Shown here one piece after another: positions 26,460-42,367 of a DNA stretch of 64,000 nt. Each line of letters begins with the position of its first letter. Within the stretch, counting starts at the first letter, position 1. Under the pieces are notes generated by a model, which ran no database searches, was not told where the DNA came from, and saw only the letters and a list, made by a program, of their open reading frames with translations. Source of the DNA: a virus (Duplodnaviria; Heunggongvirae; Uroviricota; Caudoviricetes). The position numbers and the translations under genes are program-made. The DNA is taken from the IMG/VR virus record IMGVR_UViG_3300042006_000037; one strand, written 5' to 3'.

Positions 26460-28094
26460 TTACACCAGAATGTCCTGAAGCTCTCGATCCATTTGACGTA
26501 CCTGCTTTCCCACAACTTGATCAAACAATTCATCAACATCAAGCTCAGATGTAATCTCATGTTCATACTGAGTCATTGGAGAACAGCGCTCAATCATATG
26601 GATGACAGTTTGATTGTAACCCAACACTTTCTTGGTCCGAGTAAGAGCAACATACAACAAGTTGCGTTCCATATCCTGAAGACCAACCCACTCACCTTGT
26701 TGATTATACGGTGATGGAAAGTCATCTGCAAGAATAACAACATCAAACTCACGACCTTTAGATTTATGAGCAGTTGTCAGCGTTACATCTGGATCTTGAC
26801 AATTCTTATGCTTGGATAACACACCAAGGATTTTGTAAACAGAACCGTTCTGCACCATGTTAAACACACGAAGCAATTCACCTTGTACTGCTTCCGCTTC
26901 TGTCTCACACTCTTTCCAACTTGCAAACTGTACAAGGCTTTCGTGTTTAACCTTTGGAAGATTACCACGATGAAGCTCAATTGCCGAATCAAGCAGTTTG
27001 GTGAAGTCGGTGACATCAATTTCCAGATTGACACGCTTACCTTGTTCCATCAAATCAACGGCTTCAAATATCAGTGCCCCGTTAGTACGGAACAACATGG
27101 TGTATGGACCATCCCAAATTTCTTGTGGGATTTCATACTTGGGCATGATCTTAGTGGTTAGTTTCTCCCAACCTTTAACGGCTGTAATCTTACGACCATC
27201 ACGAGCCAGAACACAGTCAGCAAGATCACCAATTGCTTGACCAAAACGAAAACTCTTGGACAGCGAGGCTTCAGGCCAATCAAGTTCAAGCATTGCATTC
27301 TTCGCACCACGCCATGAATAAATGTTTTGGAAACCATCACCTACGGCATACAACCGACATTTATCTTTCTGACGCAAGAAGATATCAAGAACAACCTCGT
27401 TGACATCCTGACATTCATCCAGATACAACACTTCATAACGTGACAAGTCTGGTTTAGACAGTTGGAACAACTTCAGGTATGTATCGTGAGTAGCCAAGAC
27501 ATCCGAACGAAGATCAGTGCGAAGACGCCACAACTTCTGTGCACAACTCAATACCAAGTATTTGAATGCACGCATACTCTTTTCGTCTTTCAACAGAATC
27601 TGATCACAAGGGTTGATCGACACATGCTTGTAACCCAGTTCTTCATCAGCTGATTGTTCGTATTTAGCAACCGTTTCTTTAATGGCTACACCAACGCCAC
27701 CAGCCTTCATCTTGCGAGCTTCACGCTCACCTTCGATCATGTAAATGAAGTCACCAGTTTTGAAATACTTGGCAATCTCTGTACCGGTTCCAGCAACGTT
27801 TTTGTATGCACCTTGTGGACGTTTCAACTTCTTCTGAAGTTGTGCACCAAATGAAGCATATGCAAGACTGTGAGTTGTCCTGCATTCAACCCACGACGGA
27901 AAGCGCCCACGAGCCTCGTCAGCCAACGATTTGTTGAAAGTCAACATCAGACTAGGGACCACATGCTCTTCAGCCACCATCACGAGTGTAGACGTTTTAG
28001 CAGCACCTGCATAAGCAGAGATTTTCAGCAATCGATGAATCTTAGACTGAGCACATACATTGCCTTGTTCATCCGTTGGTACGATAACACTCAT
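26460..28094 (-). CDS. UvrD/Rep/PcrA-like superfamily 1 DNA helicase, 544 aa
   Basis: SF1 motifs: I AYAGAAKTSTL, Ia LTFNKSLADEARGR, II VLYLDECQDV, III VGDGFQNIYSWRGA, V/VI TTAHKSKGREFDVVIL and LLYVALTRTKKVL. Confidence 0.8.
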   Translation of the reverse strand: MSVIVPTDEQGNVCAQSKIHRLLKISAYAGAAKTSTLVMVAEEHVVPSLMLTFNKSLADEARGRFPSWVECRTTHSLAYASFGAQLQKKLKRPQGAYKNVAGTGTEIAKYFKTGDFIYMIEGEREARKMKAGGVGVAIKETVAKYEQSADEELGYKHVSINPCDQILLKDEKSMRAFKYLVLSCAQKLWRLRTDLRSDVLATHDTYLKLFQLSKPDLSRYEVLYLDECQDVNEVVLDIFLRQKDKCRLYAVGDGFQNIYSWRGAKNAMLELDWPEASLSKSFRFGQAIGDLADCVLARDGRKITAVKGWEKLTTKIMPKYEIPQEIWDGPYTMLFRTNGALIFEAVDLMEQGKRVNLEIDVTDFTKLLDSAIELHRGNLPKVKHESLVQFASWKECETEAEAVQGELLRVFNMVQNGSVYKILGVLSKHKNCQDPDVTLTTAHKSKGREFDVVILADDFPSPYNQQGEWVGLQDMERNLLYVALTRTKKVLGYNQTVIHMIERCSPMTQYEHEITSELDVDELFDQVVGKQVRQMDRELQDILV

Positions 28095-28420: not shown

Positions 28421-28648
28421 TTAATCTTTATTCTCCTTGTCAAGCTGTTCTTGAATGTAGTCAATGTAATCTTCAGCATCGAATTTACTTTCGTTCGATT
28501 CACGCATGAAGACCTTAACTTGTTCCCATGTGAAGAGTGGAACGGTAGCATGTTTGTCCTTTGTAGCAAACGCGAAAAAGCAGTCTTGTGGGCGAAGTAT
28601 TTCAAGTACATCAGGTTTCATGTACGCAGTAGCTTTCAATGTTGTCAT
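28421..28648 (-). CDS. hypothetical protein, 75 aa
   Basis: ATG at M22 of listed ORF 28421..28711 has GAGGAA 6 nt upstream and overlaps the upstream gene's TGA (ATGA). Confidence 0.45.
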   Translation of the reverse strand: MTTLKATAYMKPDVLEILRPQDCFFAFATKDKHATVPLFTWEQVKVFMRESNESKFDAEDYIDYIQEQLDKENKD

Positions 28649-28836
28649 ACCATATTCCTCAAGATGTCGTAAACGTAAATGTCCTTGGTACAATAATCCA
28701 TCATTGGACAACCTGTGTCAACAGAATTCATCAAATGAGTGTAGTAAGCAGCAACGTGACTGCTCAGAACCTTGCGTTGCTTAACAGGGCTGACTCGACC
28801 ACCCATTTCATTTAATCCTTGTTGACTGTCACACAA
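28645..28836 (-). CDS. hypothetical protein, 63 aa
   Basis: ORF-track ORF. Translationally coupled. Confidence 0.45.
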   Translation of the reverse strand: MCDSQQGLNEMGGRVSPVKQRKVLSSHVAAYYTHLMNSVDTGCPMMDYCTKDIYVYDILRNMV

Positions 28837-29036
28837 AGGTACATTTCATAATCTGACGAGTCATAACAACAAGAGCAACCATCAACCTTCAGATTTTCAG
28901 GAGAGATTGTAACCTCATCAATAGTCACGCAACCAAAATGTGAACAGGCTCGCTCCAATAGGTCATCCATGTTTATCGTTCCAAAGTTACCAATTGGGAT
29001 GTAGAGTTGATTTGCATCACTTACAGGTCTGCTCAT
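28812..29036 (-). CDS. hypothetical Cys-rich protein, 74 aa
   Basis: ORF-track ORF. Contains CSHFGC..GCSCC. Confidence 0.45.
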   Translation of the reverse strand: MSRPVSDANQLYIPIGNFGTINMDDLLERACSHFGCVTIDEVTISPENLKVDGCSCCYDSSDYEMYLCVTVNKD

Positions 29037-29284
29037 TTCAATTTCTCCAACGGAATCAAGTCAGTGAGTGGGCGTTTCAAAACTGCAACGCCTTTACTTT
29101 TAGTATTCCAGTTCTTAGCCGGTGGTGACCAAGGGTATTCGTCAATTGCGTCAGCCCAATAATCACAGAGAGTGTACCACAATCCATCTTCAAGTCTATA
29201 CCAACATTCAGGCCACTGGTCTGTTTCTGGAGCCCAATGTGTGGCATTCTTTGGAGCGTTTTGCGGATTGGTTGGCTTATTCAC
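29033..29284 (-). CDS. hypothetical Trp-rich protein, 83 aa
   Basis: ORF-track ORF. ATGA overlap downstream. Confidence 0.45.
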   Translation of the reverse strand: MNKPTNPQNAPKNATHWAPETDQWPECWYRLEDGLWYTLCDYWADAIDEYPWSPPAKNWNTKSKGVAVLKRPLTDLIPLEKLK

Positions 29285-29442
29285 TTCTGTTCTCCATTCT
29301 TCAATGCGTAGTAGGCTTCAAGTAATTCTTCAAAATCAGAAACCTTAACCCAGTCACCATTTGCAAAAGGAGGGCACACCTGAAGCTTTCCACAAATATT
29401 GACGTAGTACAGGACGTTGTTGGGGTTGTATTCGGTAGTCAT
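29281..29442 (-). CDS. first gene of leftward early operon, 53 aa
   Basis: ATG (MTTEYNPNN...) has AAAGGAG 8 nt upstream and sits ~25 nt downstream of the minus-strand promoter. The listed ORF extends to 29490 without an SD. Confidence 0.5.
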   Translation of the reverse strand: MTTEYNPNNVLYYVNICGKLQVCPPFANGDWVKVSDFEELLEAYYALKNGEQK

Positions 29443-29467
29443 CTGGTTTCTCCTTTGGAATGTCGCC

Positions 29468-29495
29468 ATCATACACCACCAATTCAGCATGTCAA
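29468..29495 (-). promoter_or_regulatory. leftward early promoter (TTGACA-16-TATGAT)
   Basis: Reverse complement reads TTGACAtgctgaattggtggtgTATGAT, then an SD and the ATG of the first leftward gene. Confidence 0.6.
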
Positions 29496-29500
29496 GCCTA

Positions 29501-29529
29501 TTGACAAAATCAGTTCACATCTGTAGAAT
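29501..29529 (+). promoter_or_regulatory. rightward early promoter (TTGACA-17-TAGAAT, TG-extended -10)
   Basis: ttgacaaaatcagttcacatcTGTAGAAT. Its -35 lies back-to-back with the leftward promoter's -35. Confidence 0.65.
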
Positions 29530-29535
29530 GGGCAA

Positions 29536-29866
29536 CCTTGAAGCAGATAAAGCTTCTCGCACTGAGAGAGAAATGTCATAACCACTCACCGACTCAGTGT
29601 TAAAGGCAAGAAGAAAGCAGGCCAACATAATGTGGAAGTGATCCCTAACGGGACCAGATACGACATTGCAGGCATCGGCAACGGTGTAAGCGTATCTCGG
29701 GAGAAAGGTGTTGCTACCTTATCCTATCTCGTGTACTTTGTGTACATGCCTGATGAATCAGGATGCTAGCTACGGTGAGCATGAAGATGACTCCTTGGTT
29801 CCCGATTGTGGAACCCCTTAGGGGAAGTCTATCTATACTACAACAATGAGCATATGGGAGAAGCAA
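29536..29866 (+). ncRNA. candidate noncoding RNA / long structured 5' leader (~330 nt)
   Basis: Lies between a near-consensus promoter and the first SD-preceded ORF (29868). No credible ORF on either strand. Several perfect local hairpins (CCTGATgaATCAGG, GGTTCCcgattgtGGAACC, CCCCttaGGGG). Confidence 0.3.
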
Positions 29867-29867
29867 T

Positions 29868-30023
29868 ATGTGTGATGATCTTAAGATACAATTTGAAAGT
29901 GATATGAAAGATTTTGATCTTGACTTCACCTTGAATGGATGTGGTGTGAAGTATTTGAAAGGTAAAACACGAATTGCATATGATGCGTTCATTCGGGGGT
30001 ATCATATGGGTTTGAGAGGTTGA
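29868..30023 (+). CDS. hypothetical protein, 51 aa (not in ORF track)
   Basis: GGGAGA SD 6 nt before the ATG. Translates MCDDLKIQFESDMKDFDLDFTLNGCGVKYLKGKTRIAYDAFIRGYHMGLRG. Ends 4 nt before the next ATG. Confidence 0.45.
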   Translation: MCDDLKIQFESDMKDFDLDFTLNGCGVKYLKGKTRIAYDAFIRGYHMGLRG

Positions 30024-30026
30024 AAA

Positions 30027-30221
30027 ATGGAAAGACCAGAAACAGACTTATGGGAAAAGAGTTATAGACAAGACATGTTAGATTGGTGTACATGGAATGT
30101 CAGGAATACAAAGATTGACAACCTTCCTGAATTTATGAGATGGTTCATGCAGCAAGAACGAGGTAAGATGAATCCACAATACATAATTGATGCATGGCAG
30201 GAGACACAATGTGTTCAGTAA
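30027..30221 (+). CDS. hypothetical protein, 64 aa
   Basis: ORF-track ORF with gaaaaATGG context. Confidence 0.45.
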   Translation: MERPETDLWEKSYRQDMLDWCTWNVRNTKIDNLPEFMRWFMQQERGKMNPQYIIDAWQETQCVQ

Positions 30222-30543
30222 TTTTAGTGATAAAGAGATTGACAAGCTGTATGAGATGAGACACATTGATGCTTACGAAATGCTTGTAGATACAGACGGT
30301 TGGTCTAAATGTGGTCGCTGTGGTGTTCATCCTCGAAGCTGGCGATTCAATAACGGTAGTTGGGCAACATGCCTTTGCTTCAGGAAGTATGAAGAACATC
30401 CGGTACGAACTGAATCAGTGTTGTCTGTATTGAAACGAACAGGGTTGACAGCAGAATACATACCAGATAACCTTCGCATCAGTTGGAACAAGTTTGCAGC
30501 AGATGGTGTGATGAGAAACAAACTTCCTGAAGGGCAATGGTGA
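30187..30543 (+). CDS. hypothetical Cys-containing protein, 118 aa (alternative GTG start at 30211)
   Basis: ORF-track ORF. GGAGAC SD is 5 nt before GTG 30211. Contains CGRCGVHP...CLCF. Confidence 0.45.
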
Positions 30544-30836
30544 TGTCAACAGTAAACGATAAGCTTGACCAAATGCATAAAATGATTCAAGCTATTACCG
30601 CTGTTGTGACTGAAGCACACGGTGGTTGCAGTGAGGCTACACAACACCTTGAGTACATGACTATCGTTCTTGACGATATGATGACACCTACTGTGATTAC
30701 AACGGACATGGTTAGAGAGTTGCGTCAACGTACAGGTGAGGGTATGATGTCGTGTCACAAGGCTCTCAAGCACTCTGACGGCGATATGGATAAAGCAGTT
30801 GACTATCTCAGAAGCTCAGGTACACTTTGCATCTAA
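30537..30836 (+). CDS. hypothetical protein, 99 aa
   Basis: ORF-track ORF. Its start overlaps the previous stop. Confidence 0.45.
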
Positions 30837-30861: not shown

Positions 30862-31200
30862 GTGGCGTATCGTAAGCTTGAAATTGATGACAAGGTAAAG
30901 ATTATTAATCCGGGTTTCAACAACCATGGATCGTTTGGGGTTGTAACTGATTTGATAGGTGATACAGCGTTAGTACACTACACCTTGTGGGAGTCACATC
31001 GCCAGCATGAAACAAATTGTGTGTTTCCATTCAGCAAGCTTTTACTCTCTACTGGCAAGCCAACATACACTCCTGAAGATGAACGTGAAATCTGGGGTGA
31101 AGTCAATCATGACGATGTAGAGTTGTACAAAGGTAATCTGCTTGAGCGAATTTTAAAACTTGAACAAGAAGTGCTTGACTTGAAGAAACGACTAGCGTAG
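30862..31200 (+). CDS. hypothetical protein, 112 aa (GTG start)
   Basis: AGGAGA SD 6 nt before the GTG. C-terminal coiled coil. Confidence 0.45.
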   Translation: MAYRKLEIDDKVKIINPGFNNHGSFGVVTDLIGDTALVHYTLWESHRQHETNCVFPFSKLLLSTGKPTYTPEDEREIWGEVNHDDVELYKGNLLERILKLEQEVLDLKKRLA

Positions 31201-31224
31201 AATTCAAACCGTAAAGATCATAAA

Positions 31225-31333
31225 GACACGGTGATGGAATTGGTAGACAGACTGGAGGATTCAGTATACGGTGACAGTTACTGATGATACTGGGGCTGAA
31301 AAGCATGTGGGTTCGACTCCCACCCGTGCCACC
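31225..31333 (+). tRNA. atypical tRNA-like element (possible tRNA gene or tRNA 3' fragment)
   Basis: D-loop-like GGAATTGGTAGAC. Canonical T-arm GTGGG-TTCGACT-CCCAC, then acceptor 3' strand CCGTGCC-A. The only 5' partner GACACGG (one A:C mismatch) gives ~107 nt, too long for a standard cloverleaf. ACGGTGA is directly repeated at 31228 and 31268. Confidence 0.4.
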
Positions 31334-31507: not shown

Positions 31508-31536
31508 TTGACACACTAATCTGACTTCCGTATAAT
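31508..31536 (+). promoter_or_regulatory. sigma70 consensus promoter (TTGACA-17-TATAAT)
   Basis: ttgacacactaatctgacttccgtataat with perfect hexamers. Drives the SPFH operon. Confidence 0.65.
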
Positions 31537-31571: not shown

Positions 31572-32468
31572 TTGAAATTTAGCAATCTGATCAAAGCTTC
31601 CGCATTGGCACTGGCTGCAACCCTGATGGTTGGTTGTGGTGAGCGAGTTGAAGTTCCACCGGGCTTTGTCGGCAAGATCATGACAAAAGATGGTTACCAA
31701 GAAGGTTTGATTCCAACTTCGAAGCTTCGTCTTCCATTCTGTAATGCTTACTGTGATCGTCTGGTAGTACTGGACACCACCGACAAGTCTTATGTTGAAC
31801 CGATGGAAATCTTCATTCCCGGCGACAAGCTGATTGTAAAGGTTGATCTGCGTGCAACGCTGTCTGTTGACCCAACCAAAGCTGAAGCAATGTTCAACAA
31901 GCTTCCTCAAGTTGCAGAGACTGACCAATTCAGTAAGATTTCTGCTGAGTCGATCTACGGGACATATGGTCGTCAGGTGTTGCAAGCTGAAGTTCGTTCG
32001 TACCTGACTCGATACACCATTTCCGAAATTGCTTCGAATGGTGAGAAGATCAACGCTGACATTCAGGTGATTCTGTCTAAGGTAATGTCTGAGCGTACAC
32101 CGTTTACTGTACGATATGCTGGTTTGACCAACATTAAGTACCCACCAATCATCACCGAAGCACAAGAGAACAGTGCAAAACGTCGTGAGATGATCGCTCA
32201 GGAAGAAGCAGCACTCGAAGTAAGCAAGGTTCAACTGTCTCGTGAACTGCAAGAAGCCAAGATGCAGCGTGCAATTGACAAAGAGAAAGCTGAGACAGAA
32301 GCTCAAGCACAAATGGTATTGGCAGCCGCTGTAGATCCTCGCTCCCTGCGTATCAAAGAGCTTGAGATTCAGAAGATTCTGGCTGAGAAGTGGGATGGTG
32401 GTCTGCCGCAAACAATCATGGGTGGTGACGGTAATATCCCAATGATCATGGACATGCGTAACAAGTAA
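31572..32468 (+). CDS. SPFH/band-7 (stomatin/prohibitin/HflKC-like) domain lipoprotein, 298 aa (TTG start)
   Basis: AAGGAG 7 nt before the TTG. Signal peptide plus lipobox LMVGCG. SPFH-like core followed by a long charged coiled-coil (EEAALEVSKVQLSRELQEAKMQRAIDKEKAETEAQAQ). Confidence 0.6.
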   Translation: MKFSNLIKASALALAATLMVGCGERVEVPPGFVGKIMTKDGYQEGLIPTSKLRLPFCNAYCDRLVVLDTTDKSYVEPMEIFIPGDKLIVKVDLRATLSVDPTKAEAMFNKLPQVAETDQFSKISAESIYGTYGRQVLQAEVRSYLTRYTISEIASNGEKINADIQVILSKVMSERTPFTVRYAGLTNIKYPPIITEAQENSAKRREMIAQEEAALEVSKVQLSRELQEAKMQRAIDKEKAETEAQAQMVLAAAVDPRSLRIKELEIQKILAEKWDGGLPQTIMGGDGNIPMIMDMRNK

Positions 32469-40667: not shown

Positions 40668-40696
40668 TTGACAACCGTACACCACAAGCGTATAAT
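40668..40696 (+). promoter_or_regulatory. sigma70 consensus promoter (TTGACA-17-TATAAT)
   Basis: ttgacaaccgtacaccacaagcgtataat. Confidence 0.65.
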
Positions 40697-42311: not shown

Positions 42312-42338
42312 TAATGTTTAAAAGTGCTTTAAAGTAGT

Positions 42339-42367
42339 TGACAACAGTCTTCTACCTCTGTATAATA
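42339..42367 (+). promoter_or_regulatory. sigma70 consensus promoter (TTGACA-17-TATAAT, TG-extended)
   Basis: ttgacaacagtcttctacctcTGTATAAT. A 10-bp perfect inverted repeat follows immediately. Confidence 0.65.

Follow-up and report, generated by a model that had tools for sequence, protein, structure and literature searches.

A conserved, pseudoknotted leader RNA between an early promoter and its first gene in a Caudoviricetes genome and related phages

The window analysed here is a stretch of 64,000 nucleotides (nt) from IMG/VR virus record IMGVR_UViG_3300042006_000037 (Caudoviricetes), part of the ~100 kb genome of a virulent phage, and our subject is the segment of ~330 nt at 29536–29866 that lies between an early promoter and the first gene behind it. 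Rightward structural genes extend to 21.6 kb of the window. They are followed by a leftward operon (21.9–29.44 kb) containing the genes for a UvrD-like helicase and an RNA ligase, and from 29.5 kb by a long rightward block with small open reading frames (ORFs), a Band-7 protein, a primase-helicase and a polymerase-like protein. The leftward operon has a short leader only, and the first gene of the rightward unit, an ORF of 51 amino acids (aa) at 29868–30023, is delayed to 29868, just behind its Shine-Dalgarno sequence (SD). The junction is laid out as follows.

29468–29495, minus strand: promoter of the helicase/RNA-ligase operon (TTGACA-16-TATGAT), back to back with the plus-strand promoter.
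29501–29529, plus strand: sigma-70 promoter driving the RNA (TTGACA-17-TAGAAT, 11 of 12 consensus matches), aligned in all class I homologues (see below).
29536–29866, plus strand: the whole structured leader RNA, within a block conserved from 29530 to the SD (nhmmer, alignment A2 and covariation).
29856–29870, plus strand: SD (GGGAGAAG), followed at 29868 by the start codon of the first early ORF; the P9 strand AGGGGAAGUCUA is similar to this SD block.

With 29529 as the last position of the −10 hexamer, +1 is expected at about 29535–29537. The first-pass annotation, made from the letters of the window, had let the segment begin at the +1 of a near-consensus promoter and had put the first SD-preceded ATG at 29868, and both placements hold, the start context being GGGAGAAGCAATATG. 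It proposed that the segment is a phage non-coding RNA (ncRNA) or a long structured leader, and suggested covariation across related phages as a check.

To assemble homologues, sensitive blastn, pattern scans and nhmmer profiles were used. In a blastn comparison of 29400–30050 with 50,697 phage records, matches were confined to the non-coding part and came from Pseudomonas phage phiPMW (76.6% over 174 nt) and vB_PpS_SYP (SYP), at the same divergent junction in both. Eleven distinct sequences, from phiPMW and metagenomic relatives, are collinear with the window from promoter to SD and were grouped as class I; their conservation ends at the start codon, and the first gene varies among them. RNAalifold applied to the 12-sequence alignment A2 returned 62 pairs, 24 of them compensatory. 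The fold tested was a hand-refined structure of 73 pairs including a pseudoknot, and the controls were the same structure with the 3' partners slid by 1–3 columns. Standard pairs filled 87.8% of cells (33–46% in the slid controls), changes on both sides were found at 42/73 pairs (10–14 in the controls), the covariation score was 0.381 (about 0.1 in the controls), and 0/500 shuffles matched the observed score. Both pseudoknot helices, A and B, were intact in 11/11 class I sequences, with six complementary sequence variants for helix A and seven for helix B. The P1 stem was followed in alignment A3, which holds 22 sequences from class I and from a second class described below: compensatory changes affected 7/8 pairs, 90% of cells were paired, up to six pair types were seen per position, and the covariation score was 0.53 (at most 0.15 in the controls), while the loop strands GAGAGAnAUGUC and CUCACCGG were nearly invariant. 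The single-sequence fold was only modestly better than shuffles (z = −2.18), and the decisive support is comparative. These alignments show that 29536–29866 specifies a real, folded and conserved RNA and not a spacer, so that the proposed structured ncRNA or leader is supported: conserved, covarying, pseudoknotted, starting from +1 and with no conserved reading frame. Its size across members is 330–400 nt, and the ~330-nt window RNA contains ~10 helices plus the pseudoknot. The elements of the window RNA are these, all on the plus strand.

29540–29556, plus strand: P0, an optional 5' hairpin (GAAGC/GCUUC) with compensatory variants in loci L005, L007, L104, L015 and in phiPMW; missing in L013, L006 and L004.
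29559–29600, plus strand: P1, an 8-base-pair stem (29559–29566/29593–29600) with the family-defining loop AGAGAAAUGUC..CACUCACCG (29567–29592).
29605–29623, plus strand: P2, GGC/GCC (GGUC/GACC in L104), closing a purine-rich loop with AAGAAGAA (29608–29615).
29628–29697, plus strand: H-type pseudoknot region with helix A (29628–29633/29663–29668) and helix B (29656–29662/29691–29697), the 5' strand of helix B being located in the loop of helix A; the region encloses GUGGAAGUG and hairpins P3a (29640–29655) and P4 (29673–29686).
29699–29725, plus strand: P6, GGGA/UCCU plus AAGG/CCUU around the loop UGUUGCUA; 97.9% paired, two covarying pairs, the rest invariant.
29731–29762, plus strand: hairpins P7 (29731–29747) and P8 (29749–29762, CCTGATgaATCAGG), from alignment and covariation; compensatory variants seen by eye are CCUCAU/AUGAGG, CUGAC/GUCAG, UCAGC/GCUGA and CCAGC/GCUGG.
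29763–29782, plus strand: AUGCU/AGCAU hairpin whose 3' strand is the first copy of a direct repeat, DR1 (UGAGCAU, 29776–29782); its counterpart in the L004 group and phiPMW, read off the alignment, is GCUC/GAGC plus AAU(A)/(U)AUU.
29785–29834, plus strand: P9, the 3' domain, with outer AGAUGAC/GUCUAUCU, middle CUCCU/AGGGG and inner GGUUCC/GGAACC helices (helices 11–13; 88–100% paired, 7 pairs compensatory); a homologous domain is present in class II.
29847–29853, plus strand: DR2, the second UGAGCAU copy, 2 nt 5' of the SD.

Three perfect local hairpins had been picked out from the window alone, and lack of their conservation had been named as a finding that would speak against a functional RNA. 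Two of them, P8 and GGTTCCcgattgtGGAACC (29797–29815), are conserved with compensatory changes, and hairpins are kept, with such changes, in every lineage. The third, CCCCttaGGGG, is probably not a hairpin of this RNA: the invariant AGGGG pairs with the invariant CUCCU (29791–29795), and the CCCC is unconserved. Two longer-range pairings were rejected. A 5'-3' GCUUCUC/GAGAAGC pairing that would hide the SD, taken from the minimum-free-energy fold, is confined to the window and not kept in L007 or L004. Pairing of CUCACCG in the P1 loop with CGGUGAG at DR1 (7–8 base pairs) is found in the window subgroup only, is degraded in phiPMW and the L004 group, and is absent from class II.

The segment had also been said to lack coding capacity, and the homologues agree. 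An antisense 92-aa ORF exists (29714–29992) and sense ORFs are short only; stops interrupt all three sense frames in 11/11 homologues (1–10 per frame), distances from anchor to anchor vary between lineages by 1, 2 or 4 nt, i.e., by non-multiples of 3, and no conserved open frame with indels in multiples of 3 nt was found across the homologues. The competing account, a small protein-coding gene as annotated in relatives or a spacer with chance hairpins, draws on the coding sequences (CDSs) annotated over the homologous DNA in phiPMW (gp181, 129 aa; L001 2314–2703) and SYP (gene 113, 81 aa; L002 2525–2770), on stop-free runs of 24–82 aa near the centre in two phases, and on the clustering of translations of the region by BLASTP, which occurs because the DNA itself is conserved. 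However, gp181 starts upstream of its own promoter, so that it overlies both promoter and RNA, the window reads ATG TCA TAA where the SYP ORF continues, and the two products match neither each other nor any window ORF; both CDSs are very likely spurious. Among the GenBank records examined, many leave the region unannotated and others give it a hypothetical-protein CDS. With stops in every frame and the compensatory changes described above, we give the coding or chance account next to no credence. A conserved ORF through the 3' domain (28 aa in the window, 54 aa in PAK_P1) was rejected as well, as the L004 group has no start codon for it.

The family reaches well beyond class I. SYP and L121, whose helicase is 81% identical to that of the window phage, match the window over no more than the first ~95 nt and then continue into a different body. 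This class II body is present in Pakpunavirus (PAK_P1, PAK_P4, JG004, C11, K5, PaoP5 and others), in Otagovirus (phiPsa374 and relatives, Dickeya phage Bobbio), in the KIL phages, UAVern, XD2 and others, and occurs in 178–184 GenBank phage records, often at two sites per genome. Its fold is strongly covarying (30/45 pairs compensatory), and the order of elements is the same: P1 comes first, then a purine-rich loop that a covarying helix closes (its UAUGAAGAGGA being the counterpart of AAGAAGAA in the P2 loop), then central hairpins of the GNRA/UUCG type, and last a 3' domain with ..UCUAYC at its end. The 5' hairpin P1 with its conserved loop is the link between the two classes. Scanning IMG/VR for the P1 loop yielded ~25 more members and divergent ones without a TTGACA promoter; three of these precede an SF2 helicase gene, and they have short matches in Vibrio breoganii phages. 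One divergent relative of the central domain (CUGAAUACGAAAGCGAUUAAAGGGGCUGGAC...GGAAUGAUCGC) was seen in Vibrio phage 1.082.O (L187 1400–1740; 35.1–35.5 of 35.8 kb in the record), in a gap of 520 nt that lacks annotation, close to the end of the genome and before a small ORF, with a P1 loop off the family consensus. Class I pattern scans of metagenomes and genomes gave 5 true and 5 false matches, and no match in bacterial genomes. Several pattern matches in IMG/VR were coding false positives. In PAK_P3 (Nankokuvirus), no copy was found in the regions compared (1–32.5 kb and 83–88.1 kb).

In PAK_P1, copy 1 (28.2 kb) heads an early/replication unit syntenic with that of the window and copy 2 (89.4 kb) lies 5' of a small Cys-rich ORF and a tRNA array; both head rightward units at divergent junctions, and likewise those of UAVern, XD2 and Bobbio. 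One copy 5' of a phage tRNA array, on the same strand, was noted in Pakpunavirus, Otagovirus-like contigs and UAVern, at these loci.

L105, 3004–6986: RNA copy near a tRNA array.
L106, 4176–7650: RNA copy near a tRNA array.
L107, 113–1842, minus strand: RNA copy near a tRNA array.
L125, 6173–8693: RNA copy near a tRNA array.
L131, 2599–3202: RNA copy near a tRNA array.

The tRNA-side copy is consistently followed by 60–100 nt of A/C-rich, G-poor spacer and then by the small Cys-rich ORF (MRCKCCD.../MSRCRACNN.../MSRCRCCNN...), which is conserved in Pakpunavirus, Otagovirus, UAVern and XD2 (L124 from ~3990 onward in PAK_P1; L128 at ~1940; L129; L131; L133). In phiPsa374, Bobbio, UAVern and XD2, an extra consensus promoter and another structured-looking leader lie between RNA and tRNAs.

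Coupling to the promoter is strict. Every member of classes I and II has a consensus promoter immediately 5' of the RNA, all Pseudomonas-phage members examined stand on the rightward side of a divergent junction directly behind that promoter, and the distance from the −10 end to the P1 loop is 14–15 nt in 22/22 further IMG/VR members with a TTGAC promoter, which indicates that the transcript begins with the P1 stem, to which class I adds the optional P0. The window holds one copy (nhmmer), carried only by the divergent-junction promoter. A scan of the window for terminator-like sites after the RNA found none as far as 37.07 kb, and sequence conservation runs straight into the SD. We conclude that the RNA would form the opening ~330 nt of the early transcript to the right; it is promoter-coupled and continues, with no terminator in between, into the first gene's SD.

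A position between the helicase/RNA-ligase operon and the primase-helicase/polymerase operon might be taken as a hint for an origin-of-replication transcript, an R-loop or primer like ColE1 RNA II and the T4 ori transcripts, and the RNA has conserved purine-rich stretches and lies at a local minimum of cumulative GC skew (28–30 kb). However, GC skew tracks the direction of transcription and is therefore confounded as a test for an origin. In many genomes the RNA occurs twice, with one copy near tRNAs and far from the replication genes, distant members lie inside co-directional gene arrays, covariation keeps RNA helices and not DNA motifs, and no AT-rich unwinding element or iterons were noticed. 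An origin transcript is thus very improbable.

Another possibility is that host RNases cut the leader from the early transcript and that the folded RNA accumulates as a stable, trans-acting molecule that titrates or redirects a host component, for which Hfq (via the AAGAAGAA loop), RNA polymerase, the ribosome, an RNase, a tRNA or a defence protein would be candidates. Size and complexity, with a pseudoknot, several GNRA/UUCG tetraloops and T-loop-like GUUCGAAUC/GUGGAAG, resemble those of stable functional RNAs more than those of attenuators; the best-conserved parts are unpaired strands; the paired 5' end begins at +1; the RNA is driven by the strongest early promoters, is present twice per genome and precedes a variable gene; and the P2 loop fits the AAnAAnAA motif of Hfq/Crc, which is found in CrcZ. 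No neighbouring protein family is common to siphovirus-type and myovirus-type loci within 4 kb, which would favour a host over a phage partner. In contrast, no terminator or recognisable processing site is present at the 3' end and conservation is unbroken into the SD, each RNA has a single A-rich motif where CrcZ has about six, it is hard to see what a sponge would need the flanking direct repeat for, and the PAK_P4 re-annotation based on RNA-seq called a small RNA elsewhere and none at this site. The analysis produced no supporting evidence for the discrete species of ~300 nt that the first-pass annotation had envisaged, nor for its suggestion of a decoy or host-factor-titrating function. 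We consider action in trans possible but rather unlikely.

The location just 3' of early promoters, where long rightward units begin, would also suit processive antitermination or anti-Rho action of the kind described for HK022 put, in which the nascent leader would bind its own polymerase and carry it past terminators or Rho sites, whether in the long early unit or in the tRNA region, which is untranslated. Action in cis would explain the strict promoter coupling, one copy type lies 5' of tRNA arrays, and the G-poor, A/C-rich stretch behind that copy seems to resemble a Rho loading site. However, terminator-like sites are missing for 7 kb downstream in the window, promoters re-initiate at 31508, 33265, 39897, 40668 and 42338, leftward operons of the same junctions lack the RNA, the RNA is 4–5 times the size of put and of different architecture, and phiPsa374 and its relatives have another promoter between RNA and tRNAs. 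Antitermination is accordingly an improbable explanation.

The 3' domain has a further feature that bears on the reading preferred here. It is flanked by an exact direct repeat of 7–14 nt in 23/23 sequences of one set and 21/22 of another. At least 15 different repeat sequences were found, the two copies being identical within an RNA and different between phages, for example as follows.

Window: UGAGCAU
L004: UCUGAGCAUAUU
SYP: AGUGAGAC
phiPsa374: AGCGUCAUGAG
UAVern, copy upstream of tRNAs: AUCCCCAUGAGA
XD2 (L133): AUCCGCAGAAUACA
PAK_P1: AUCUGCAU

DR1 is the 3' strand of a hairpin, and the strand upstream of it could pair with either DR1 or DR2. Identity within each RNA combined with drift between lineages is expected if both copies must pair with one common partner; in that case DR1 and DR2 would form mutually exclusive structures, a candidate switch. 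DR2 lies 0–8 nt from the SD in 6/8 early-operon lineages examined (read from the sequences). In the 28.2-kb copy of PAK_P1 (L126 28390–28430), the DR1 hairpin is expanded to CUCAUCUGCAUAUACAUAUAUGUAUAUCUGCAUGAG, a long AT-rich palindrome in which the repeat core occurs twice, giving three occurrences in that RNA.

We therefore favour, with a probability of roughly 45%, a cis-acting leader of the early operon that would serve as a control and protection module. The host RNA polymerase would make the RNA first, from the consensus sigma-70 promoter at the divergent junction. Its 5'-terminal helices and compact fold would shield the 5' end of the transcript, and the conserved 5' and central core with its invariant loop strands might be what a host component or ligand recognises. 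The strand 5' of DR1 would pair alternatively with DR1 or DR2, and this choice would set the conformation at the ribosome-binding site abutting DR2 and thereby the expression level of the first early genes. Conservation that continues into the SD, the missing terminator, the location at the head of operons and the strict promoter coupling are all consistent with such a leader. Several observations weigh against it. Members have no ligand, protein partner or downstream gene class in common, and 330–400 nt with a pseudoknot and GNRA tetraloops exceeds most cis regulators. The tRNA-side copies and those of XD2 and Bobbio have 45–100 nt of A/C-rich spacer between DR2 and SD, so that gating of the ribosome-binding site is not universal, and the repeat covers loop nucleotides that pairing with the upstream strand does not need (phiPMW CCAUUGAGCAUAU). 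The distant members L154, L149, L169 and L171 lie off divergent junctions, without a TTGACA promoter, within co-directional gene arrays.

A more far-reaching reading is that these RNAs form a new class of large, tertiary-structured phage RNA, extending from Pseudomonas sipho- and myoviruses to Vibrio phages, which, produced ahead of any other molecule upon infection, would directly target the gene-expression machinery of the host (RNA polymerase, ribosome, tRNA, Hfq or RNase) or would be catalytic, its repeat-flanked 3' domain being an undescribed switching or processing device. We regard this as conceivable, yet doubtful.

A pseudoknotted RNA of 330–400 nt that is better conserved than the genes around it implies an important function early in infection, and that function, once found, would bring a new RNA into the picture of host takeover or of the control of early genes. 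Phages used against P. aeruginosa in therapy (PAK_P1, PAK_P4, JG004, PaP1-like, PaoP5) and phages of plant pathogens (phiPsa374, KIL) have the RNA once or twice per genome, in each case driven by the strongest of their early promoters. In these genomes the RNA lacks an annotation or passes for a hypothetical protein, and finding its function would also allow some 180 genome annotations to be corrected. Promoter plus leader would then make a portable module for phage and Pseudomonas engineering, and the co-evolving direct repeat is a concrete structural puzzle that is open to testing.

Further features were noted in the rightward block of the window. It contains three sigma-70 promoters matching the consensus at 12/12 positions (31508–31536, 40668–40696 and 42338–42366, plus strand) and several at 11/12; no copy of the RNA lies behind the three perfect ones, and the one checked, at 31508, has a short leader. 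The window phage appears to rely on many host-type promoters and not on one long early transcript. An early ORF of 99 aa (30537–30836, plus strand) matches the elongation factor Ts N-terminal domain at a score below threshold (PF25025; 26.1 bits, cut-off 33.2) and has homologues in five related loci. At 31225–31331 (plus strand), 1.4 kb downstream of the leader and behind a promoter-like site (31175–31203), lies a tRNA-like element that scores 26.4 bits with the Rfam tRNA model (cut-off 29, E = 0.002) and was missed by ARAGORN, which reported 0 tRNA or tmRNA genes in the window. It has good acceptor, D and T arms (GUGGGUUCGACUCCCAC, CCA end) and an insertion of ~40 nt after the anticodon arm, and could be an intron-containing tRNA, a tRNA with a long variable arm or a tRNA-like RNA. 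The RNA ligase (PHA02142 type) and a Band-7/SPFH protein are common to the window phage (24480–25631, minus strand; 31572–32468, plus strand), Nankokuvirus (PAK_P3 27053–27904 and 28639–29859) and UAVern-type myoviruses (uav_084), which indicates that the siphovirus-like Plaisancevirus group and these myoviruses share early/replication modules besides the RNA.

We compared the RNA with described families. Rfam 15, a scan of which had been proposed at the outset, contained no family reaching the gathering threshold in the whole window, and at E ≤ 10 only chance-level matches on 29400–29950; on six related loci it reported tRNAs only, none over the RNA, and on the PAK_P1 and L154 copies only sub-threshold matches. 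A likeness to RNase P RNA (GAGAGAAAUGUC and GCAGGCCAACAU, recalling CR-I and an M1 segment) was a by-eye resemblance of short strings, with no covariance-model match even at E ≤ 10. Group II intron D1–D4 (RF02001) scored 14.4 bits where 32 are needed (E = 0.57–1.3), with most pairs broken or non-canonical. T-box-like tRNA binding was considered for the T-loop-like strings (class II GUUCGAAUC, class I GUGGAAG) and dropped, there being no T-box match and the UGG varying (GCGGAA in L024). A CsrA/RsmA sponge was rejected with a GGA count near chance and an unconserved CAGGAUG, and 6S RNA with a consensus fold that is multi-domain and not a single long hairpin, and with no Rfam match. The ncRNA candidates of PAK_P3 (Chevallereau 2016; Putzeys 2024) are at different loci. 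The phiPMW genome paper lists both junction promoters and no RNA, the PAK_P3 and PAK_P4 transcriptome papers and the ONT-cappable-seq study place ncRNAs at other loci, and full-text searching found no description of the family in the papers covered, nor was there a GenBank annotation. Fremin et al. 2023 (PMC10690425) list 8,495 anonymous intergenic candidates from IMG/VR, which could include the family, in a text without mention of Pseudomonas.

Among known systems, the put sites (putL, putR) of HK022 come close in position: just 3' of phage early promoters, at the head of the early operon and on the sense strand, made by unmodified host polymerase, in two copies per genome (one per early unit), with no protein and in a structure-dependent manner. 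A put RNA has ~70 nt and two stem-loops, whereas the RNA described here has 330–400 nt, a pseudoknot and ~10 helices, no known sequence relationship to put, and a place in rightward units only, and no terminators that need read-through were found nearby. What marks put is downstream terminators and binding to the zinc domain of polymerase beta-prime; here, terminator-like sites are missing from 29.87–37.07 kb. The CI RNA of P4 and the c4 RNA of P1/P7 likewise lie in the leader of the operon they control, with short leader repeats central to the mechanism. Those RNAs, of ~77–79 nt, are cut out by RNase P and base-pair with repeats complementary to them, whereas the repeats here are direct copies, with no complementary loop found and no Rfam match. 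CrcZ/CrcY share the Pseudomonas context and an exposed AAnAAnAA-type motif (that of the P2 loop, 29608–29615), but have about six such motifs against one, and neither a terminator of its own nor homology was seen for the RNA here.

Riboswitches and alternative-pairing leaders, including Rho-dependent and translational ones, have several features in common with it. They are promoter-proximal, with a covarying conserved core next to the SD, and the 3' part here shows signs of mutually exclusive pairing that would involve either DR1 or DR2. A conserved structured domain backed by covariation is present, whereas a consistent class of downstream gene is not: the first gene is a small ORFan, the Cys-rich protein or, in distant members, an SF2 helicase. 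The RNA also differs in having no terminator hairpin and no Rfam riboswitch match, and it is far larger than most units of aptamer plus platform. In its general character it resembles GOLLD, ROOL, OLE and raiA, which are large, highly structured, associated with phages or prophages, supported by covariation and without known biochemical function; GOLLD and ROOL are often near tRNA genes, as is one copy type here. It differs from them in its size (330–400 vs 580–800 nt), its strict coupling to a promoter and its continuity with an mRNA, and no Rfam match connects it to them. By these comparisons of sequence and predicted fold, the element is a new and widespread phage RNA family of unusual architecture.

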